DNA of 64,000 nt, taken from positions 35,286 to 99,285 of the forward strand of contig JAHJQN010000005.1 of the NCBI GenBank assembly GCA_018819225.1, read 5' to 3'. The translations under genes and the position numbers were made by a program. Source of the stretch: Candidatus Micrarchaeota archaeon. Lineage in GTDB: Archaea; Micrarchaeota; Micrarchaeia; Norongarragalinales; SBBD01. Of this stretch, positions 2,935 through 64,000 are shown piece by piece. Numbering within the stretch: position 1 is the stretch's first letter; the number at the start of each line of letters is the position of its first letter. The notes under the pieces were generated by a model. It ran no database searches, was not told where the DNA came from, and saw only the letters and a program-made list of their open reading frames with translations.

Positions 2935-4239
2935 TCAAAGCAAATCTTTCGCCACGATGCTCAGCACCTCGACTTCCCTGCGAAATTGGTGGGCGTGACG
3001 TAATGCAATGGCTTGCGCCACACTCGGCGCGAGTTCCTCGCCTTCCCGGAATCCGCGCTTGCGGGCGTACGCCAGAATCTCGTCCGATATGGTTTTTCCT
3101 GAAGACAGCATTTCGCGGAAGGGCTGCGCAAACATCGCTGAACCGTGATCTTTTTGGAAAGAGTATGCGAGCTTATGGAATGCCGTACAATACGCGCGCA
3201 CGCGTGCATCCTCTAATCCGTTCAGAGCCACCGCGGGAAGCAGCGTATTGGTGATATAGGAATGAGGAGGCACCAAGAGCACGTGGCCATCGAACTTGAA
3301 CGGTTTCCGGATGCCGTCGTCGCTGGGACGCACCACAATCTCTTTCGCGTAAATGCGCTTGAGCACGGCGTTCAAGGCCGAAGAGGCGCCTAGCAAGACG
3401 CGCGGATGATTCGCGTCCATGCCGCGTTGTTCAATGGTTCCGAGTTTGTTGATGCGAACGGGACCCCAGAAAAAATTAAAGGGATTCGCGTTGCGGACGG
3501 ATAAGGGCACTTTGCCCATCACCTCCCTAACGTTCGAAATGAATCGTTTTTTTCGGGTAGCCGTTAAATGATTCAAATCCGTCAACGTGGACGCGTAACG
3601 AGGCAAGCGGCCGAATTCCGTCAATTCGTGGTAGACTCCCGCCAAATGCGAATGCTTCAAATCGCGGTATAAGAGCATGCGCGCATCCTTTCCAACATGT
3701 CGTCCTTCATAAAAGGGCGAGGATTGCAGGAAACAACTGACTGCAGGATCCGCGGCAATCAAGAAATTGTATTGCGAGATGACGGTGCGACGCGTCTCAG
3801 GTCCCTTGTAAATGCGCAGTAGCTTATCCTTATACAACATGGCGCCTTTCGGGAGATCGATGTGAAAATGAAAACCGCATACGCGTGACGCATACTGGCG
3901 AAACGCGGGTCCTAATACCGCGTCTTGCACGCGGTACCACGGCTTGTTGACCATGAACGGCTCGGAACGACCGGGGTACGTGCCCAAAGGAAGCAGGTAG
4001 CCATCGCCTTTCAACATTTTCTCCACGCGGTTTACGTGGTAAAATAAATTGCGAATGGAACCCAGGGAACGCGCGTGGGGCATGGAATTGAATTCGAGCA
4101 TGGAGTCCCCGACTTCCATAACAAACGGTTTTCGGGACTTGAAGCGTTTATGAATCCGACGCGCCCCGTTCATGAGGTTTCCGTCATCATCAATCAGGAA
4201 TACTTCGAGTTCGAAACCTACGGTGTGTCGTTTCATCAA
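2935..4239 (-). CDS. Carboxylate-amine ligase, glutamate-cysteine ligase family 2 (YbdK/GCS2-like)
   Basis: N-terminal GFELEVFLID motif typical of GCS2 ligases; 434 aa. Confidence 0.65.
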   Translation of the reverse strand: MMKRHTVGFELEVFLIDDDGNLMNGARRIHKRFKSRKPFVMEVGDSMLEFNSMPHARSLGSIRNLFYHVNRVEKMLKGDGYLLPLGTYPGRSEPFMVNKPWYRVQDAVLGPAFRQYASRVCGFHFHIDLPKGAMLYKDKLLRIYKGPETRRTVISQYNFLIAADPAVSCFLQSSPFYEGRHVGKDARMLLYRDLKHSHLAGVYHELTEFGRLPRYASTLTDLNHLTATRKKRFISNVREVMGKVPLSVRNANPFNFFWGPVRINKLGTIEQRGMDANHPRVLLGASSALNAVLKRIYAKEIVVRPSDDGIRKPFKFDGHVLLVPPHSYITNTLLPAVALNGLEDARVRAYCTAFHKLAYSFQKDHGSAMFAQPFREMLSSGKTISDEILAYARKRGFREGEELAPSVAQAIALRHAHQFRREVEVLSIVAKDLL

Positions 4240-4305: not shown

Positions 4306-5766
4306 TCATCCTTTGACGACGCCGAGAGGCACCAATCGAGCCACGGGTTTGCTGATTCCCGCCATGTGCACGGCTTTAACGACTTCGTCCACGTCCTTGT
4401 ACGCGCCGCCCGCCTCCTCCGCCAGTGAACGCCAGGAAGTGGCGCGAACCGCCTGCCCTTTTTCCTCCATTTCTTTTTGCAATTGTTCTCCGCGGAAGCT
4501 TCGCAATGCTTGCTTACGGGACATGACCCGCCCGGCTCCATGACACGAACTCCCAAAACTTTCTTTCGCACCAGGAAGGCCGACTAAAACGTAGGAAGCG
4601 GTATTCATGCTTCCGGGAATGATCACGGGTTGGCCGACGTTCCGGTAAGCAGTGGGAATTTCTTTGCGTCCTTTCCAGAACGCACGGGTCGCCCCCTTGC
4701 GGTGGATGCACACTTCCTGCATTTTTCCGTTGACTTCGTGTTCCTCGAATTTGGCGATGTTGTGGCAAACGTCGTACACGAGCTCCATGCCCAAGGACTC
4801 CCACGACTGCTTGAAGACGGATGCAAAGGTTTCGCGGGCCCAATGCGCCATGTAATGGCGATTACAGAATGCATAGTTGATGGCCGCGCGCATTTGTTTC
4901 AAATAATTTTGGGCTTCCGGAGAGGAAACGGGCGCGCAGCATAACTCGGGATCCGGCAAAGAAATGCCGTACTTTTTAGCGGCTTGCAACATGACGCGCA
5001 AGTTGTCGTCGCAAACTTGGTGCCCGAAACCCCGCGAACCCGAGTGAATCATCATGGTAATCTGTCCTTCATGCGTCAAGCCGAACGCCTTCGCGGTTTC
5101 CGCATCATAGATGCGGTCGATTTTCTGCACTTCCGCGAAGTGGTTTCCGCTGCCGAGCGTACCGAACTGGGGTTTGCCGCGCTTGCGCGCCTTATCGGAA
5201 AGCAAGGAAAAATCCGCGCCTTCAAACACGCCGTTTTCCTCGCAATGCTCGGCATCCGCGGGCACCCCAAAACCCTGTTCGATGGGATACTGAACACCGG
5301 CCGTCACCGCCTCCTCAAGTTCTTGTTCCGTTAAGCGGACGCGTCCTTTCGTGCCGACTCCGCACGGAATGTTTTGAAAAAGCCCGTTCACGATTTCCTT
5401 GAGCCTGGGCTTCACATCCTCTTCAGAAAGACTCGTGCGCAGCAAACGCACGCCGCAATTAATGTCGTAACCCACGCCGCCCGGCGAAATCACGCCGTCC
5501 TCCATCGAAAACGCAGCCACGCCTCCAATGGGAAATCCGTATCCTTCATGGCCGTCGGGCATGACTTGAGCGGCCTCTAAAATTCCGGGCAGCTTCGCCA
5601 CATTGGATGCTTGCCAGAGCGTGCGATCCGAATGCAATTTGTTCAGCATTTGAGGCGTGGAATAAACGCGCACGGGAACGCGCATGCCGTCCACTGCAGG
5701 CGCTTCGTATACTCCGTTTCGAATGAGTTTCAAATCCATGAGGTATATCCACCGGTCGCCCATCAT
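4306..5766 (-). CDS. rtcB: RNA-splicing ligase RtcB
   Basis: GSGNHF, HNIAKFEEH, CHGAGR motifs; 486 aa; no intein insertion visible. Confidence 0.9.
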   Translation of the reverse strand: MMGDRWIYLMDLKLIRNGVYEAPAVDGMRVPVRVYSTPQMLNKLHSDRTLWQASNVAKLPGILEAAQVMPDGHEGYGFPIGGVAAFSMEDGVISPGGVGYDINCGVRLLRTSLSEEDVKPRLKEIVNGLFQNIPCGVGTKGRVRLTEQELEEAVTAGVQYPIEQGFGVPADAEHCEENGVFEGADFSLLSDKARKRGKPQFGTLGSGNHFAEVQKIDRIYDAETAKAFGLTHEGQITMMIHSGSRGFGHQVCDDNLRVMLQAAKKYGISLPDPELCCAPVSSPEAQNYLKQMRAAINYAFCNRHYMAHWARETFASVFKQSWESLGMELVYDVCHNIAKFEEHEVNGKMQEVCIHRKGATRAFWKGRKEIPTAYRNVGQPVIIPGSMNTASYVLVGLPGAKESFGSSCHGAGRVMSRKQALRSFRGEQLQKEMEEKGQAVRATSWRSLAEEAGGAYKDVDEVVKAVHMAGISKPVARLVPLGVVKG

Positions 5767-9280: not shown

Positions 9281-9300
9281 TCTAGGAGCATTAAAAAAAG

Positions 9301-9420
9301 TGGGGCCGCCGAGATTTGAACTCGGATCGCTGCCACTCCGGCCTTCACGCGCCTTGCAGCTTTTGGCAGAGCGAGGGAAGGTCCCCAAGGCAGTAGGATG
9401 CCAGGTTACCCCACGGCCCC
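9301..9420 (-). tRNA. tRNA-Pro(GGG) with a canonical anticodon-loop intron of about 46 nt
   Basis: Minus strand reads GGGGCCG...CTGCC-TTGGGG-[intron]-GGCAG...CGAGTTCAAATCTCG-GCGGCCCC-A; acceptor, anticodon and T stems all pair. Confidence 0.8.
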
Positions 9421-13355: not shown

Positions 13356-13940
13356 TCACTTCTTTTCCTTCTTCTCTTCGCCACCCGCTGCGGCAGCCGC
13401 CTTTTGTTCCTTAATGGATTTGCGCAGGACGCCGACGGTCATTCCGCTTCGGCCGGTGGTCCGCGTGTGCTGGCCGCGCACTTTTTGGCCGAGGGAGTGT
13501 CTCCAGCCTCTCCACGAACGCATGTCCTTTTCTTTCTGCACATCGGTTCGGACGGCAAACACTAAATCGTTCATGAGCACGTGTTGGGCCCTGCCGGTTT
13601 CGGCCGATTTGCTTCGGTTCAACGAGAACTCGGGAATCCCGTGCTGGGAAGGCATTCTCAACATTTCATCAATTTTATCGATCTGTTCGTCCGTCAAGTC
13701 CCCGCAACGCATTTGGAGCGGTAACTTCAATTCGTTTCGGATGACGCGTTCCATGGCATAAGCGAGATTGGATCCCACGCCGCGTACGCGCAATAGTCCT
13801 CGGTACAACAGCATGTGGCCGTCAACGTCCTTTCCGGCGATACGAATGACGCCTCGAAAATTCTCGTCCTCTGCCTTTTCGGGCTTCGCTTGCACGGAAG
13901 GCGCGCGCGGGCCTTTTTTCTTAAATTCTTTCTTCGCCAT
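13356..13940 (-). CDS. rps13: 30S ribosomal protein S13 (uS13)
   Basis: RIAGKDVDG ... GVGSNLA uS13 signature. Confidence 0.9.
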   Translation of the reverse strand: MAKKEFKKKGPRAPSVQAKPEKAEDENFRGVIRIAGKDVDGHMLLYRGLLRVRGVGSNLAYAMERVIRNELKLPLQMRCGDLTDEQIDKIDEMLRMPSQHGIPEFSLNRSKSAETGRAQHVLMNDLVFAVRTDVQKEKDMRSWRGWRHSLGQKVRGQHTRTTGRSGMTVGVLRKSIKEQKAAAAAGGEEKKEKK

Positions 13941-13958
13941 ACTTCATCAAAACATCAA

Positions 13959-14178
13959 GCGCCGGGACTGGGATTTACGCCCCTCTCTCTATTGGCGCGA
14001 TCAACGCAATGGCTTTCTTCAGGGAATATACCATTCCCGGAAACAGCGTTTGAGGCAACCTCTTGAGTCAGAGGATTCGAACCCAGGAGTCCTTGCGGAC
14101 ACCAGCTCTCCCACGTTTTCTGCCTGCTCGGGAGAAATACGTTTCCAGGCTGGCGCTTTAACCACTCAGCCATCCCGG
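13959..14178 (-). tRNA. tRNA-Ser(GGA) with two introns: canonical anticodon-loop (about 35 nt) and T-arm (about 100 nt)
   Basis: 5' part GCCGGGA-TG-GCT-GAGTGGTTAA-AGC-G-CCAGC-CTGGAA[intron 1, 14107-14141]A-GCTGG-long V arm-CTGGG-TTCGAATCC; the complementary CCCAG and the acceptor strand TCCCGGC-G lie about 100 nt downstream at 13959-13971 [intron 2, about 13970-14071]. Confidence 0.6.
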
Positions 14179-14232
14179 CACGTGAACTAACATTCTTCCA
14201 ACCTACCTTTATAAGGTTATCGACTCCCGGGC

Positions 14233-14676
14233 ATGAAAAAGCGATTTAAAGCCTGCGTCCGTTATTTTGACGTGGACCTCAAGGAAAAGGATATCCGGCT
14301 GAAAAAGCTGTGGAAAAAGTTGAACGACGCCCTATTAGTCGTGGAAGGAAAGCATGACGTAGCGGCTTTGAGGGAAGTGGGCGTGTACGCACCCGTGATC
14401 ACCGCGAATGGAAAACCCGAGCGCATCGTCCAAAAAGTGATTGCGCAGGCGCGAGGTAAGCCCGTCGTATTATTGTTTGATTACGATCGGGAAGGCACGC
14501 GCAAGACGCTGTTTTACAACGAATTATTTTTCGCGGAGGACTGCAACGCGGACCTGCAGCCGCACAAGCAGTTGAAACAACTGCTGCCGTTAAACACGAT
14601 CGAGGATTTGCCGACGGCGTACTACGACGTGATGGAAGAGATTGCTCTCGAGAAACGCGTCCGAAAAAACGTTTAG
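14233..14676 (+). CDS. Toprim-domain protein
   Basis: LVVEGKHDVAAL and LFDYDREG Toprim motifs; 147 aa. Confidence 0.65.
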   Translation: MKKRFKACVRYFDVDLKEKDIRLKKLWKKLNDALLVVEGKHDVAALREVGVYAPVITANGKPERIVQKVIAQARGKPVVLLFDYDREGTRKTLFYNELFFAEDCNADLQPHKQLKQLLPLNTIEDLPTAYYDVMEEIALEKRVRKNV

Positions 14677-15152
14677 AGAATGCGAATGACGCGACGCGCT
14701 TGCTCTCTGGAAAGCCCGAAAAACGTGACGGCAACGGATTCCCATTCCCGCGCACTGCGCTCGTCTTCCTTCGCCTGCGGTTCCGATACGAGAACGAACG
14801 CCGCATTCAAGCGCAAGCACAGCGAAAGAAATCGACGGTATTTATAGAGGCGGCGCGCGCGCGGACCGATAGGCAAATGCAACAATGAAGTCAACGGTAA
14901 TTCTATGGAAACCCGTGCTTCCTTGGCGAGTTGAACGAAACCGTTTTCCCGGTGAAATGAAGGCACGCGCGTTGGATTGACGGAGGCCGGATGGCGGCGT
15001 AGGGCTTCTTTCAGCCATTCGATGTGCTCGCTTTCCACGCGCGCGTGAGGGGGTAAGCGATGCACGTCCGCCCGCGATGTTAGAAATATTACACTATTTT
15101 TTTGGTGCACGCCAACCCCTTTTTTTCGCAGCGTCTTCGATGAGTCGCTCAA
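14673..15152 (-). CDS. Hypothetical protein (uncertain)
   Basis: 159-aa ORF, Arg-rich, no recognisable motif; overlaps the next ORF by 58 nt. Confidence 0.3.
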   Translation of the reverse strand: MSDSSKTLRKKGVGVHQKNSVIFLTSRADVHRLPPHARVESEHIEWLKEALRRHPASVNPTRVPSFHRENGFVQLAKEARVSIELPLTSLLHLPIGPRARRLYKYRRFLSLCLRLNAAFVLVSEPQAKEDERSAREWESVAVTFFGLSREQARRVIRIL

Positions 15153-25977: not shown

Positions 25978-26406
25978 ATGGCAAGAGGAGAATTTGCTGG
26001 AAGGATTCTGAAATCGCGCCGCAAGCAAGCGCGGTGGTTGCGAAAGAAGTGGAAGCGCAAGGCATTGGGCTTGAAATTCAAGTTCGATCCGTTGGAAGGC
26101 GCGCCCCTCGCTAAAGGAATTGTTTTGAAAAAGGAAGGCAAGGAGCAGAAGCAACCGCACTCGGGAATCGTGAAAACCGTTAAAGTTCAATTGATCAAGA
26201 ACGGAAAGAAAGTGGGCGCGCATTGTCCGCGCGACAAAGCCATTAATTTCATCGACGAGCACGACGAAGTGACGATTGCGGGGCTCGGCGGATCGCAGAG
26301 AGGTCAGATGGGTTCGATTCCGGGCATTCGGTATAAAGTCGTCGCCGTAAACGGGATTTCGCTCGACGAACTGCGCAAGGGCAAGAAAGAGAAGCCGAAG
26401 AGGTAG
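25978..26406 (+). CDS. rps12: 30S ribosomal protein S12 (uS12)
   Basis: Highly conserved uS12 core (PKKPNSA-type region, here [13 protein letters not shown]) and basic tails. Confidence 0.9.
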
Positions 26407-27640: not shown

Positions 27641-28078
27641 TTAAATGTCGAGAAGGATGCGAATGCGCCAGCGTCCGTTGGCTTGATGTTCGACGAGGGT
27701 TTGGTGGTGCGTCACCGCTTTCACGTGCATTTCTCCTTTTTCCGGCGAATACGGTTCGCCGCGGGCCTCGCCAACGAGACGAAAACCGTGTTCCGTTTTC
27801 TGGAATTGTCGGACGTGAAAGCTCTTGAAAAACAGTTCGGAGGAATCGCTCTCGGATAAGACATCCGACAGAACGAAATTAGTGAGTTCTTCCAGCGATT
27901 CGGCTTCCGCCCGCACCTCGAAACGATGGGATTCCTGCAAATCGTCGACGTGAGCGATCGTGGAAAACAAGGCGAGCGCGGCATGAGAAAGCGTTTCCTC
28001 GTACGTGGAACCGAACGCCTCGAACAGGACATCCGCCGTATGATCCAAAAAACGGTATTTATCTCCGAGGACCAGCAT
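27641..28078 (-). CDS. Archease
   Basis: YRFLDHTADV motif; start taken at the internal Met (MLVLGDKY), giving 146 aa; the upstream 140 codons of the ORF look non-coding. Confidence 0.8.
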   Translation of the reverse strand: MLVLGDKYRFLDHTADVLFEAFGSTYEETLSHAALALFSTIAHVDDLQESHRFEVRAEAESLEELTNFVLSDVLSESDSSELFFKSFHVRQFQKTEHGFRLVGEARGEPYSPEKGEMHVKAVTHHQTLVEHQANGRWRIRILLDI

Positions 28079-28132
28079 TTCCGAACACCATACCCATACG
28101 CTATAATAACTGCAAGGAACTAAAGCATTAAA

Positions 28133-28513
28133 ATGGTGTCTTCGAAAGGCGCTGCATACGAAAGGCAGCTCAAAAAAATGTTGGAAGGGAAAGGCTTTTT
28201 CGTGATTCGATCCGCAGGAAGCGGCGTGGACTCGACGTCGCCTGACTTGCTCGCGCTTTCTTCCGCGAAACGAATGGCGATCGAGTGCAAGGCCCGGAAT
28301 TCCGGGTACGTTTGGATTGAAGCCACTCGCATGCGGCGCATGAACGCCTTCGAGGAAAAAACCGCGATTCCGTACTATGTTGCGTGGAAGGTGGCGCGGG
28401 AGGAATGGCGGTTCTTTCCGCTGATCGCCCTCCGAGAAACGGCGAAAGCCTTCGTGATAGAGGAAAAGGACTTGCACAGCGGACTTTCTCTCGAGCAATT
28501 ACTGAACCGCTAA
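28133..28513 (+). CDS. hjc: Holliday junction resolvase Hjc
   Basis: GAAYERQLKKMLEGKGFFVIRSAGSG ... IECKAR, a restriction-endonuclease-fold motif typical of Hjc. Confidence 0.8.
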   Translation: MVSSKGAAYERQLKKMLEGKGFFVIRSAGSGVDSTSPDLLALSSAKRMAIECKARNSGYVWIEATRMRRMNAFEEKTAIPYYVAWKVAREEWRFFPLIALRETAKAFVIEEKDLHSGLSLEQLLNR

Positions 28514-63061: not shown

Positions 63062-63830
63062 GAACGTTGCGACCTCGGATCTGTGAGGATTTGAGAAAAA
63101 ATCTGCTATATGCTGGAAACCCCGAGCATCTCAGGCTACCATCGGAAACGACGCTTCGGAATGAATATCATTCTCGAAGAAATTCAGTTGGTGAAAATGT
63201 TTTGAGTGCGGGCAATCAGCAGGGAAGTCGGCGCGAAAGCGCTTGACCCCTCAGAGACTACACGCAGACTTCTATAGTGCAAGAGAACATGAAGGCATAT
63301 CTCCTTGGCGCGCTACACGATGGCTCCAATCACGGTAACACGTACCGAATCGTCCAAAAAGAAGAAGAATACGTCCGCTGGATTGCGGATGAACTTCATC
63401 AAATGGGCATTTCGGCATGGGTTTATCGGGAAGGAGCTGAACGACATTTATTCGTCGTCGAGTTCTCGAAAAGTCGGTTATCGGAAATCAAGATCAATAG
63501 TCTTGAAGAGAAAACTGAATACATTCGAGGATACTTCGATGCCGAAGGTAGCGTACCATTGAAATCGGGAGCCAGAATGTACATTTATTTCTGCCAAAAA
63601 GACCGAAAGGATCTGGAAGAAGTAAAAACATTCTTGGAAGAACTTGGAATCGTTTGTGGAAAAACCCACAATCCAACGTTCAAAGAACCTGATTATTGGA
63701 GATTCTTCATTGGATGTAAATCCTACAAAGCATTTGCATCTAAAATTGGTTCTCGCCATCCTCGAAAGAGGAAAGTACTCGAGAAGATGATATAGTCCAT
63801 GCCGCGCAGCGATGCGTGGAAGAACATGAA
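63062..63830 (+). mobile_element. 16S rRNA intron near the 3' end (after AAGTCGTAA), carrying a homing endonuclease ORF
   Basis: The 16S consensus AAGTCGTAACAAGGTAGCCGTAGGGGAACC is restored when 63062-63830 is removed. Confidence 0.8.
63277..63795 (+). CDS. LAGLIDADG-family homing endonuclease (double-motif, monomeric type)
   Basis: YLLGALHDGS (motif 1) and IRGYFDAEGS (motif 2) roughly 95 aa apart; 172 aa. Confidence 0.85.
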   Translation: MQENMKAYLLGALHDGSNHGNTYRIVQKEEEYVRWIADELHQMGISAWVYREGAERHLFVVEFSKSRLSEIKINSLEEKTEYIRGYFDAEGSVPLKSGARMYIYFCQKDRKDLEEVKTFLEELGIVCGKTHNPTFKEPDYWRFFIGCKSYKAFASKIGSRHPRKRKVLEKMI

Positions 63831-63969
63831 CAAGGTAGCCGTAGGGGAACCTGCGGCTAGATCACCTCAAAAATCAATAAGAACTAAAAGGTGATTTCAA
63901 AGCAAGGAAGTCAATTAAGTCAATTTCCTTTTTTGGAAACAATGAGGTCCGCGTCTTTATTTTTCTTAA

Positions 63970-64000
63970 GGGCTCGTGGCGCAGTGGTAGCGCGCCTGCT
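63970..64000 (+). tRNA. 5' part of a spacer tRNA (probably tRNA-Ala), truncated by the window end
   Basis: GGGCTCG-TG-GCGC-AGTGGTA-GCGC-G-CCTGC...; in the position of the archaeal 16S-23S spacer tRNA-Ala; anticodon not reached. Confidence 0.5.

Follow-up and report, generated by a model that had tools for sequence, protein, structure and literature searches.

A Micrarchaeota tRNA-Ser(GGA) gene upstream of rps13, very probably interrupted by two bulge-helix-bulge introns, one of them a 102-nt intron in the T-arm

The tRNA-Ser(GGA) locus located just upstream of rps13 in the window (the whole 64,000-nt stretch of DNA analysed here) is, in our assessment from sequence and comparative evidence, very probably a functional Micrarchaeota tRNA gene with two protein-spliced bulge-helix-bulge (BHB) introns, one of 35 nt at position 37/38 and one of 102 nt at position 59/60. 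The window carries an archaeal 16S rRNA, and its ribosomal protein S13 matches an NCBI Candidatus Micrarchaeota archaeon protein at 100% identity; its close homologues are all from Micrarchaeota. An earlier sequence-only reading of the locus had identified pieces of the gene that were all present on the minus strand, with every coordinate one base too low: the gene end given as 14178 and the 3′ piece given as 13971..13959 actually lie at 14179 and 13972..13960, respectively, and the canonical 35-nt intron was found at 14142..14108 rather than 14107-14141. The same reading had placed the 3′ piece 19 nt upstream of the rps13 start, and this distance was correct, as counted from the discriminator G to the rps13 ATG. 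The parts of the locus are as follows.

13960..14179, minus strand: tRNA-Ser(GGA) precursor gene, 220 nt, no encoded CCA.
14143..14179, minus strand: exon 1 (nt 1-37), comprising the acceptor 5′ strand GCCGGGA, the D-arm, the anticodon stem 5′ strand and the anticodon.
14146..14144, minus strand: anticodon GGA, within exon 1.
14108..14142, minus strand: intron 1, 35 nt, at canonical position 37/38.
14076..14107, minus strand: exon 2 (nt 38-59), comprising the anticodon stem 3′ strand, the long variable arm, the T-stem 5′ strand CTGGG and the T-loop TTCGAA.
13974..14075, minus strand: intron 2, 102 nt, at position 59/60 in the T-loop.
13960..13973, minus strand: exon 3 (nt 60-73), comprising U60, the T-stem 3′ strand CCCAG, the acceptor 3′ strand TCCCGGC and the discriminator G.
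13356..13940, minus strand: rps13, with its ATG at 13940, 19 nt past the tRNA discriminator G; first gene of an rps13-rps4-rps11-rpoD cluster.
14208..14214, minus strand: TATA-like TTATAAA box, a putative promoter located 29 nt before the 5′ end of the tRNA.

Read on the minus strand from G1 of GCCGGGA (14179) to the discriminator G (13960), exon 1 is GCCGGGA-UG-GCUGAGUGGUUAAAGC-G-CCAGC-CUGGAA, which stands before the 35-nt intron, exon 2 is A-GCUGG followed by the long variable arm and CUGGG-UUCGAA, and exon 3 is U-CCCAG-UCCCGGC-G. The predicted spliced junctions join CCUGGAA to AGCUGG (37/38) and GGUUCGAA to UCCCAG (59/60). The 13-mer CCCAGTCCCGGCG at 13972..13960 has no second copy in the 64-kb window, not even at a tolerance of two mismatches. 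A split, trans-spliced or permuted tRNA is ruled out, since the three exons follow one another in order on a single strand within a span of 220 nt. A T-arm-like sequence at 26308 on the plus strand was also considered and rejected, because it belongs to a protein-coding region that seems to encode the C-terminus of ribosomal protein S12.

In-silico removal of the 35 nt and the 102 nt gave an 83-nt sequence that ARAGORN called as tRNA-Ser(gga) with a full cloverleaf, that is, a class II tRNA in which the acceptor stem has 7 bp, the D-stem 3 bp and the T-stem 5 bp, the variable arm is long and the T-loop reads UUCGAAU. The 220-nt precursor was more stably folded than shuffled sequences (z = -2.9). 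On the raw DNA, ARAGORN reported no tRNA at the locus with its intron option either on or off, and its sole output there once the score threshold was loosened was a spurious tRNA-Thr. The Rfam tRNA model run on the locus alone matched only the 5′ part, with 20.4 bits against a gathering score of 29, and the raw sequence contains no uninterrupted T-arm 3′ strand directly after the T-loop. Automatic annotation would list the genome as being without tRNA-Ser(GGA). The absence of tRNAs from DPANN predictions has been explicitly ascribed to undetected disrupted genes (PMC5829648), and the tRNA-Ser(GGA) locus is a case of such an undetected disrupted DPANN tRNA gene.

The splice sites were located by a BHB scan in which every pair of cut sites in the precursor was assessed for two 3-nt bulges with a 4-bp helix between them and flanking helices on either side. 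The top-scoring BHB in the precursor combined a cut after A59 with a cut 102 nt further on, corresponding to position 59/60. In this motif the outer helix is the T-stem (CUGGG/CCCAG, 5 bp), the inner helix is CCUCU/AGGGG (5 bp), both bulges are AAU, and the central H helix UUCG/CGUA has three of its four pairs, with one U-U mismatch (U55-U). The BHB of intron 1 is weaker and of the relaxed type, with an H helix CUGG/UGGG that also forms three of four pairs (G34-G mismatch), bulges AAA and AGA, an outer helix provided by the anticodon stem (8 bp as extended in the scan) and an h′ helix of 3 bp. Among exon-compatible BHB motifs of the precursor, the best two fall exactly at 37/38 and 59/60, each with one mismatch in the central helix; modelling of BHB motifs at both junctions had been proposed in the sequence-only reading. 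Since AATCC is common to both ends of intron 2, its junction is not readable from sequence alone, and the mature tRNA is identical for any cut from 57/58 to 62/63. The same reading had set this junction at about 62/63; the BHB geometry, with the T-stem as outer helix, places it at 59/60 instead. In this modelled geometry, 59/60 is the T-arm counterpart of 37/38. A cut in another register, such as 62/63 or 58/59, is permitted by the shared AATCC and would leave the mature tRNA unchanged, but we consider it very unlikely: 59/60 is the only register that puts both cuts in 3-nt bulges with a 4-bp helix between them and the T-stem as outer helix, it is also the best register in 29 of 31 relatives (see below), and it was found independently by RNAalifold. 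Run unguided on nine T-arm regions, RNAalifold recovered the T-stem, the 4-bp H helix and the 3-nt bulge; on the same nine regions it also identified a covarying hairpin inside intron 2.

To place the gene in its phylum, 80 Micrarchaeota rps13 loci were fetched and screened with a strict parser that accepted a locus only if it had a complement to the acceptor strand, GGA in an anticodon loop and a complement to the T-stem strand. Of the 80 loci, 44 yielded a tRNA-Ser(GGA) gene shortly before rps13; the T-arm was uninterrupted in 13 of these, and in the other 31 it held an insert of 15-116 nt. The best BHB was at 59/60 in 29 of the 31 insert-bearing relatives, and in these all four pairs of the central helix form (UUCA/UGAA or UUCG/CGRR). 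Among these relatives is Ca. Micrarchaeum sp. A_DKE (L045; complete genome), with introns of 14 nt at 37/38 and 16 nt at 59/60, near the short end of the range. Pair counts over the T-stem and H-helix columns of 25 distinct sequences showed that 95.6% of cells pair, with changes on both sides at 49:65, at 52:62 and between nt 57 and its intron partner (G:C to A:U, 7 sequences). The covariation score of the observed alignment was matched by 0 of 500 shuffles, and pairing fell to 53-55% when the partner was slid by one column. These comparisons show orthology of the 59/60 intron of tRNA-Ser(GGA), which has been kept beside rps13 across much of the phylum at lengths of 15 to ~120 nt. The length series is useful for work on the growth of archaeal tRNA introns and as Micrarchaeota training data for intron-aware tRNA finders.

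Closer relatives were taken from S13 homologues with 58-65% identity (L083, L084, L085 and L086); a further entry, L082, is a copy of the L083 gene with its 5′ end masked by Ns. All four carry the same two-intron gene, with precursors of 214-220 nt, an intron 2 of 96-101 nt and the gene end 16-30 nt before the rps13 ATG. Their central helix at 59/60 is perfect (CGAA, CGGA, UGAA), suggesting that the U-U mismatch in the window is a single lineage-specific change. Between these near relatives and the window, the mature exons share 90-99% identity and the introns 58-71%; the introns of L091 are less alike to those of the window (51-53% identity). L091 is one of six loci with the gene (L088, L091, L096, L097, L099 and L102, the sequence of L096 being that of L097) among 16 obtained in a metagenome pattern scan, the other 10 being chance matches, mostly in unrelated sequence. 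The comparison with orthologous tRNA-Ser loci that had been put forward as a check therefore returned the same architecture in relatives and compensatory changes across the intron. The proposal of a second intron of roughly 100 nt in the T-arm is likewise borne out, at 102 nt, by the in-silico splicing, the BHB and an architecture conserved in dozens of Micrarchaeota.

These data also bear on whether the locus is instead a tRNA gene that a 102-bp insertion has inactivated, or whether its 3′ piece is the attachment-site leftover of an integrated element. The rejection of the locus by standard tRNA finders and the length of both introns, which is large for archaeal tRNA introns, would fit a dead gene. 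However, the site of the interruption is conserved to the nucleotide throughout the phylum, the helices bridging it show compensatory changes, and the exons have stayed 90-99% identical while the introns diverged. The T-loop, moreover, is not followed by an uninterrupted T-arm 3′ strand, and no integrase or mobile-element genes adjoin the locus. Because of the phylum-wide conservation with compensatory changes, together with the contrast between exon and intron divergence, a pseudogene or attachment-site remnant can be excluded for practical purposes, and we regard it as extremely improbable. A self-splicing group I or group II intron was also rejected, with no match at the locus even at E values up to 10 and intron sizes of only 35 and 102 nt. 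The preferred reading is that of a functional gene with two BHB introns.

Variation in intron position and content was also observed elsewhere in the phylum. In three further loci (L020, L026 and L036), the rps13-linked tRNA-Ser genes have a T-loop insert cut at a different position, with the loop reading UUCAGG... before the insert; the insert site as read from the sequence fits about 56/57 or 57/58, and by eye the inserts of L020 and L026 appear to be >130 nt. In L018 and L032, intron 1 (86-90 nt) corresponds to the 49-nt intron of L007 plus an insert of ~40 nt. This insert ends in GCUUCGCUGAAUA (L032) or GCUGUGCUGAAUA (L018), repeating or nearly repeating the 3′ end of the 59/60 intron of the same gene (GCUUCGCUGAAA), which suggests an intron-derived duplication or a nested intron.

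Both introns of the window gene contain internal hairpins. Intron 1 is a hairpin (UCUCCC/GGGAGA) whose loop holds a conserved AGGCA-GAAAA, with AGGCA at 14125..14121. The following elements were located in intron 2.

14059..14074, minus strand: hairpin 1, CCUCU-gacuca-AGAGG (CCTCTgactcaAGAGG).
14053..14060, minus strand: motif GGUUGCCU, just 3′ of hairpin 1, complementary to the AGGCA of intron 1.
14022..14038, minus strand: hairpin 2, GGGAAU-gguau-AUUCCC.

Hairpin 1 is the CCTCTgactcaAGAGG hairpin already noticed in the sequence-only reading, here at 14074..14059, and its stem is kept with a different sequence in L002 and L005 (CCUGCGCG/CGCGCGGG and CCUCGC/GCGGGG). Hairpin 2 covaries with GGGGCG/CGCCC in relatives, with three pairs changed on both sides (RNAalifold). 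Within the clade that has long T-arm introns, the hairpin stems of both introns change by covariation while two motifs do not, (Y)UUAGGC(A)GAAAA of intron 1 and GGUUGCCU of intron 2 being invariant in 12 clade members. AGGCA pairs with UGCCU and, with the flanks included, the duplex comprises 5-9 bp in all 12 members, with a pair change from U:A to C:G in L085 and from U:A to U:G in L088. RNAalifold paired the intron 1 motif with exon nt 30-35 (GCCUGG), a sequence that GCCUAR of intron 2 resembles.

The conservation of both motifs amid covarying stems, their complementarity in every clade member, the alternative pairing with exon nt 30-35 and the tRNA-rps13 spacer of only 16-35 nt in all relatives examined are points in favour of a further possibility, namely that the gene is as described and that the T-arm intron and intron 1 also have a role beyond removal. 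AGGCA may pair with GGUUGCCU, or the loop of intron 1 may alternate between two partners, intron 2 and GCCUGG. Such pairing could guide precursor folding or splicing order, or it could tie maturation of the tRNA to the rps13 operon; another option is that a protein binds at each motif. We consider an added role of this kind unlikely, with a small but real chance of being correct. The inter-motif pair counts gave no covariation above shuffles, as the core 5 bp never varies, and the RNAduplex energy between intron 1 and the whole of intron 2 did not improve on that for shuffled intron 2 sequences (z about -1). Intron 2 folded alone was not unusually stable (z = -1.2), and an intron of 15-30 nt at the same site suffices in other Micrarchaeota. 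Slightly less likely again is the more specific proposal that the two introns of pre-tRNA-Ser(GGA) interact in one Micrarchaeota clade, the AGGCA(GAAAA)-GGUUGCCU pairing steering folding or splicing order and perhaps rps13 transcript release, with GGUUGCCU mimicking the GCCUGG of the anticodon region. If true, two archaeal tRNA introns would together have a regulatory role. We view the two motifs as a conserved complementarity rather than as a demonstrated interaction. An intron-encoded C/D box guide RNA was rejected: in nine aligned introns the only box-like element was a partly conserved UUGAU, CUGA was not conserved and there was no conserved C (RUGAUGA)/D pair, and the search for Rfam small-RNA families in the intron gave none, its two matches, STnc420 and mir-678, being far below threshold and unrelated.

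The surroundings of the gene were also compared. An A/T box similar to TTATAAA occurs at about the same distance upstream of the tRNA in most relatives, and we infer that this box works as the promoter of the tRNA gene. The upstream neighbour on the opposite strand encodes a small Toprim-domain protein. Two genes upstream of the tRNA, an ORF of 159 aa (14673..15152, minus strand) gave a weak, sub-threshold match to RNase P subunit p30 (E = 8.5e-4), and in relatives L082-L084 a cut-off gene with an RNase_P_p30 match lies three genes upstream of the tRNA, so that a tRNA-processing gene may be linked to tRNA-Ser(GGA). On the downstream side, the tRNA 3′ end is separated from the rps13 start by a spacer (13941..13959, minus strand, in the window) that measures 16-35 nt in all relatives examined and usually opens with a T-rich run. 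Two arrangements would fit: co-transcription of rps13 with the tRNA in spite of this run, which resembles a terminator, or an rps13 promoter within the tRNA gene or intron 2; a location in intron 2 or at the A/T-rich 3′ bulge of the BHB was considered as a possibility.

In the proposed pathway, transcription would start from the TATA-like box ~30 nt upstream of the gene, possibly jointly with the rps13 operon that begins 19 nt downstream, and each intron end would pair with the adjoining exon to form a BHB. At 59/60, the T-stem would serve as outer helix and T-loop nt 54-57 would pair with the last intron nucleotides, with the cuts falling in the two AAU bulges. The splicing endonuclease EndA would then cut both bulges of each BHB, and the relaxed motifs, with three of four central pairs each, would suit the broad-specificity EndA known in Micrarchaeota. 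Ligation would be carried out by RtcB, aided by Archease, joining the three exons, and CCA would be added after exon joining. Candidates for the ligation step are encoded in the window itself.

4306..5766, minus strand: RtcB tRNA-splicing ligase (Pfam PF01139, 578 bits).
27641..28498, minus strand: Archease-domain protein (Pfam PF01951, E = 2.4e-30), Archease being the RtcB cofactor.

A scan of 50 window ORFs gave no match to EndA (PF01974, PF02778), and the gene for the endonuclease would therefore have to lie in another part of the genome. We infer every step of this pathway, the first three (transcription, BHB formation and the EndA cut) with support from the sequence; cleavage itself, the type of endonuclease and co-transcription with rps13 are presumed. 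Directly downstream of RtcB on the same strand is an ORF of 434 aa (2935..4239, minus strand) that matched no Pfam family and no PDB sequence.

Other RNA genes in the window are interrupted as well. A tRNA-Pro(GGG) gene at 9300..9420 (minus strand) has a 47-nt intron next to the anticodon and was found only with the intron option of ARAGORN, being missed by the default ARAGORN run and by Rfam; together with tRNA-Ser(GGA), this means that two of the three complete tRNA genes of the window are interrupted. The 16S rRNA is interrupted near its 3′ end (63063..63831, plus strand), where "...AAGTCGTAA" is followed by an insert of ~770 nt and then by "CAAGGTAGCCGTAGGGGAACCTGCGGCTAGATCACCTCA". A homing-endonuclease ORF of the LAGLIDADG type (63277..63795) lies in this insert, which gave a full-length match to the Rfam group I intron model (48.3 bits, gathering score 50, E = 3e-9). 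Group I introns have already been described in archaeal rRNA genes (PMC6125680), and the 16S insert is therefore probably another example. The last nucleotides of the window (63972..64000, plus strand), cut by the window edge, read GGGCTCGTGGCGCAGTGGTAGCGCGCCTGCT and, by their sequence, are probably the 5′ part of a spacer tRNA after the 16S rRNA, tRNA-Ala.

Long tRNA introns with conserved internal sequence have a counterpart in Euryarchaeota, where the tRNA-Trp intron, of ~100 nt and located at 37/38, encodes a C/D box guide RNA. Intron 2 resembles it in length and in having conserved internal sequence, whereas it is located at 59/60 and has no conserved C/D pair. The multi-intron tRNAs of the Thermoproteales (Crenarchaeota) are similar to the window gene in having non-canonical BHB introns and in being missed by ordinary finders; they contain up to three BHB introns each, spliced by a broad-specificity EndA (PMC8450103). 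They belong to a different superphylum from Micrarchaeota, and their EndA has an (alpha-beta)2 architecture, unlike epsilon2 or the other types of DPANN. Training of the BHB models in tRNAscan-SE 2.0 drew on Crenarchaeota/Euryarchaeota and Thaumarchaeota and did not include Micrarchaeota (PMC8450103). The nearest known systems are in the same phylum, in Ca. Micrarchaeum acidiphilum ARMAN-1/-2 (Fujishima et al. 2011, PMC3239211), which have canonical and 59/60 BHB introns, both strict and relaxed BHB motifs and, like the window gene, two introns in one tRNA. In ARMAN-2, 56% of tRNA genes are disrupted and two-intron tRNAs have been described (PMC3239211; review PMC4033280), and a pre-tRNA-Cys with a 13-nt intron at 59/60 was cleaved in vitro by the organism's own epsilon2 EndA (PMC3239211), an enzyme type known only from ARMAN-1/-2 and the Mancarchaeum lineage (PMC5829648). 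The examples given in the published text are tRNA-Cys(GCA) and tRNA-Pro(GGG; 53/54 and 59/60), with short introns (PMC3239211), whereas the window gene is a tRNA-Ser(GGA) interrupted at 37/38 and 59/60, with a 59/60 intron of 102 nt that contains conserved hairpins and motifs; the close relative A_DKE, in contrast to the window, has the short form of the same gene. The kind of gene is therefore already known, as one of the multi-intron BHB tRNAs of Micrarchaeota, and is otherwise ordinary for its lineage. What is new is the gene itself and its long T-arm intron with conserved internal hairpins and motifs, the unexplained pair of complementary motifs, and the orthology of the 59/60 intron of tRNA-Ser(GGA) and its linkage to rps13 across much of the phylum, as shown by the sequence comparisons.
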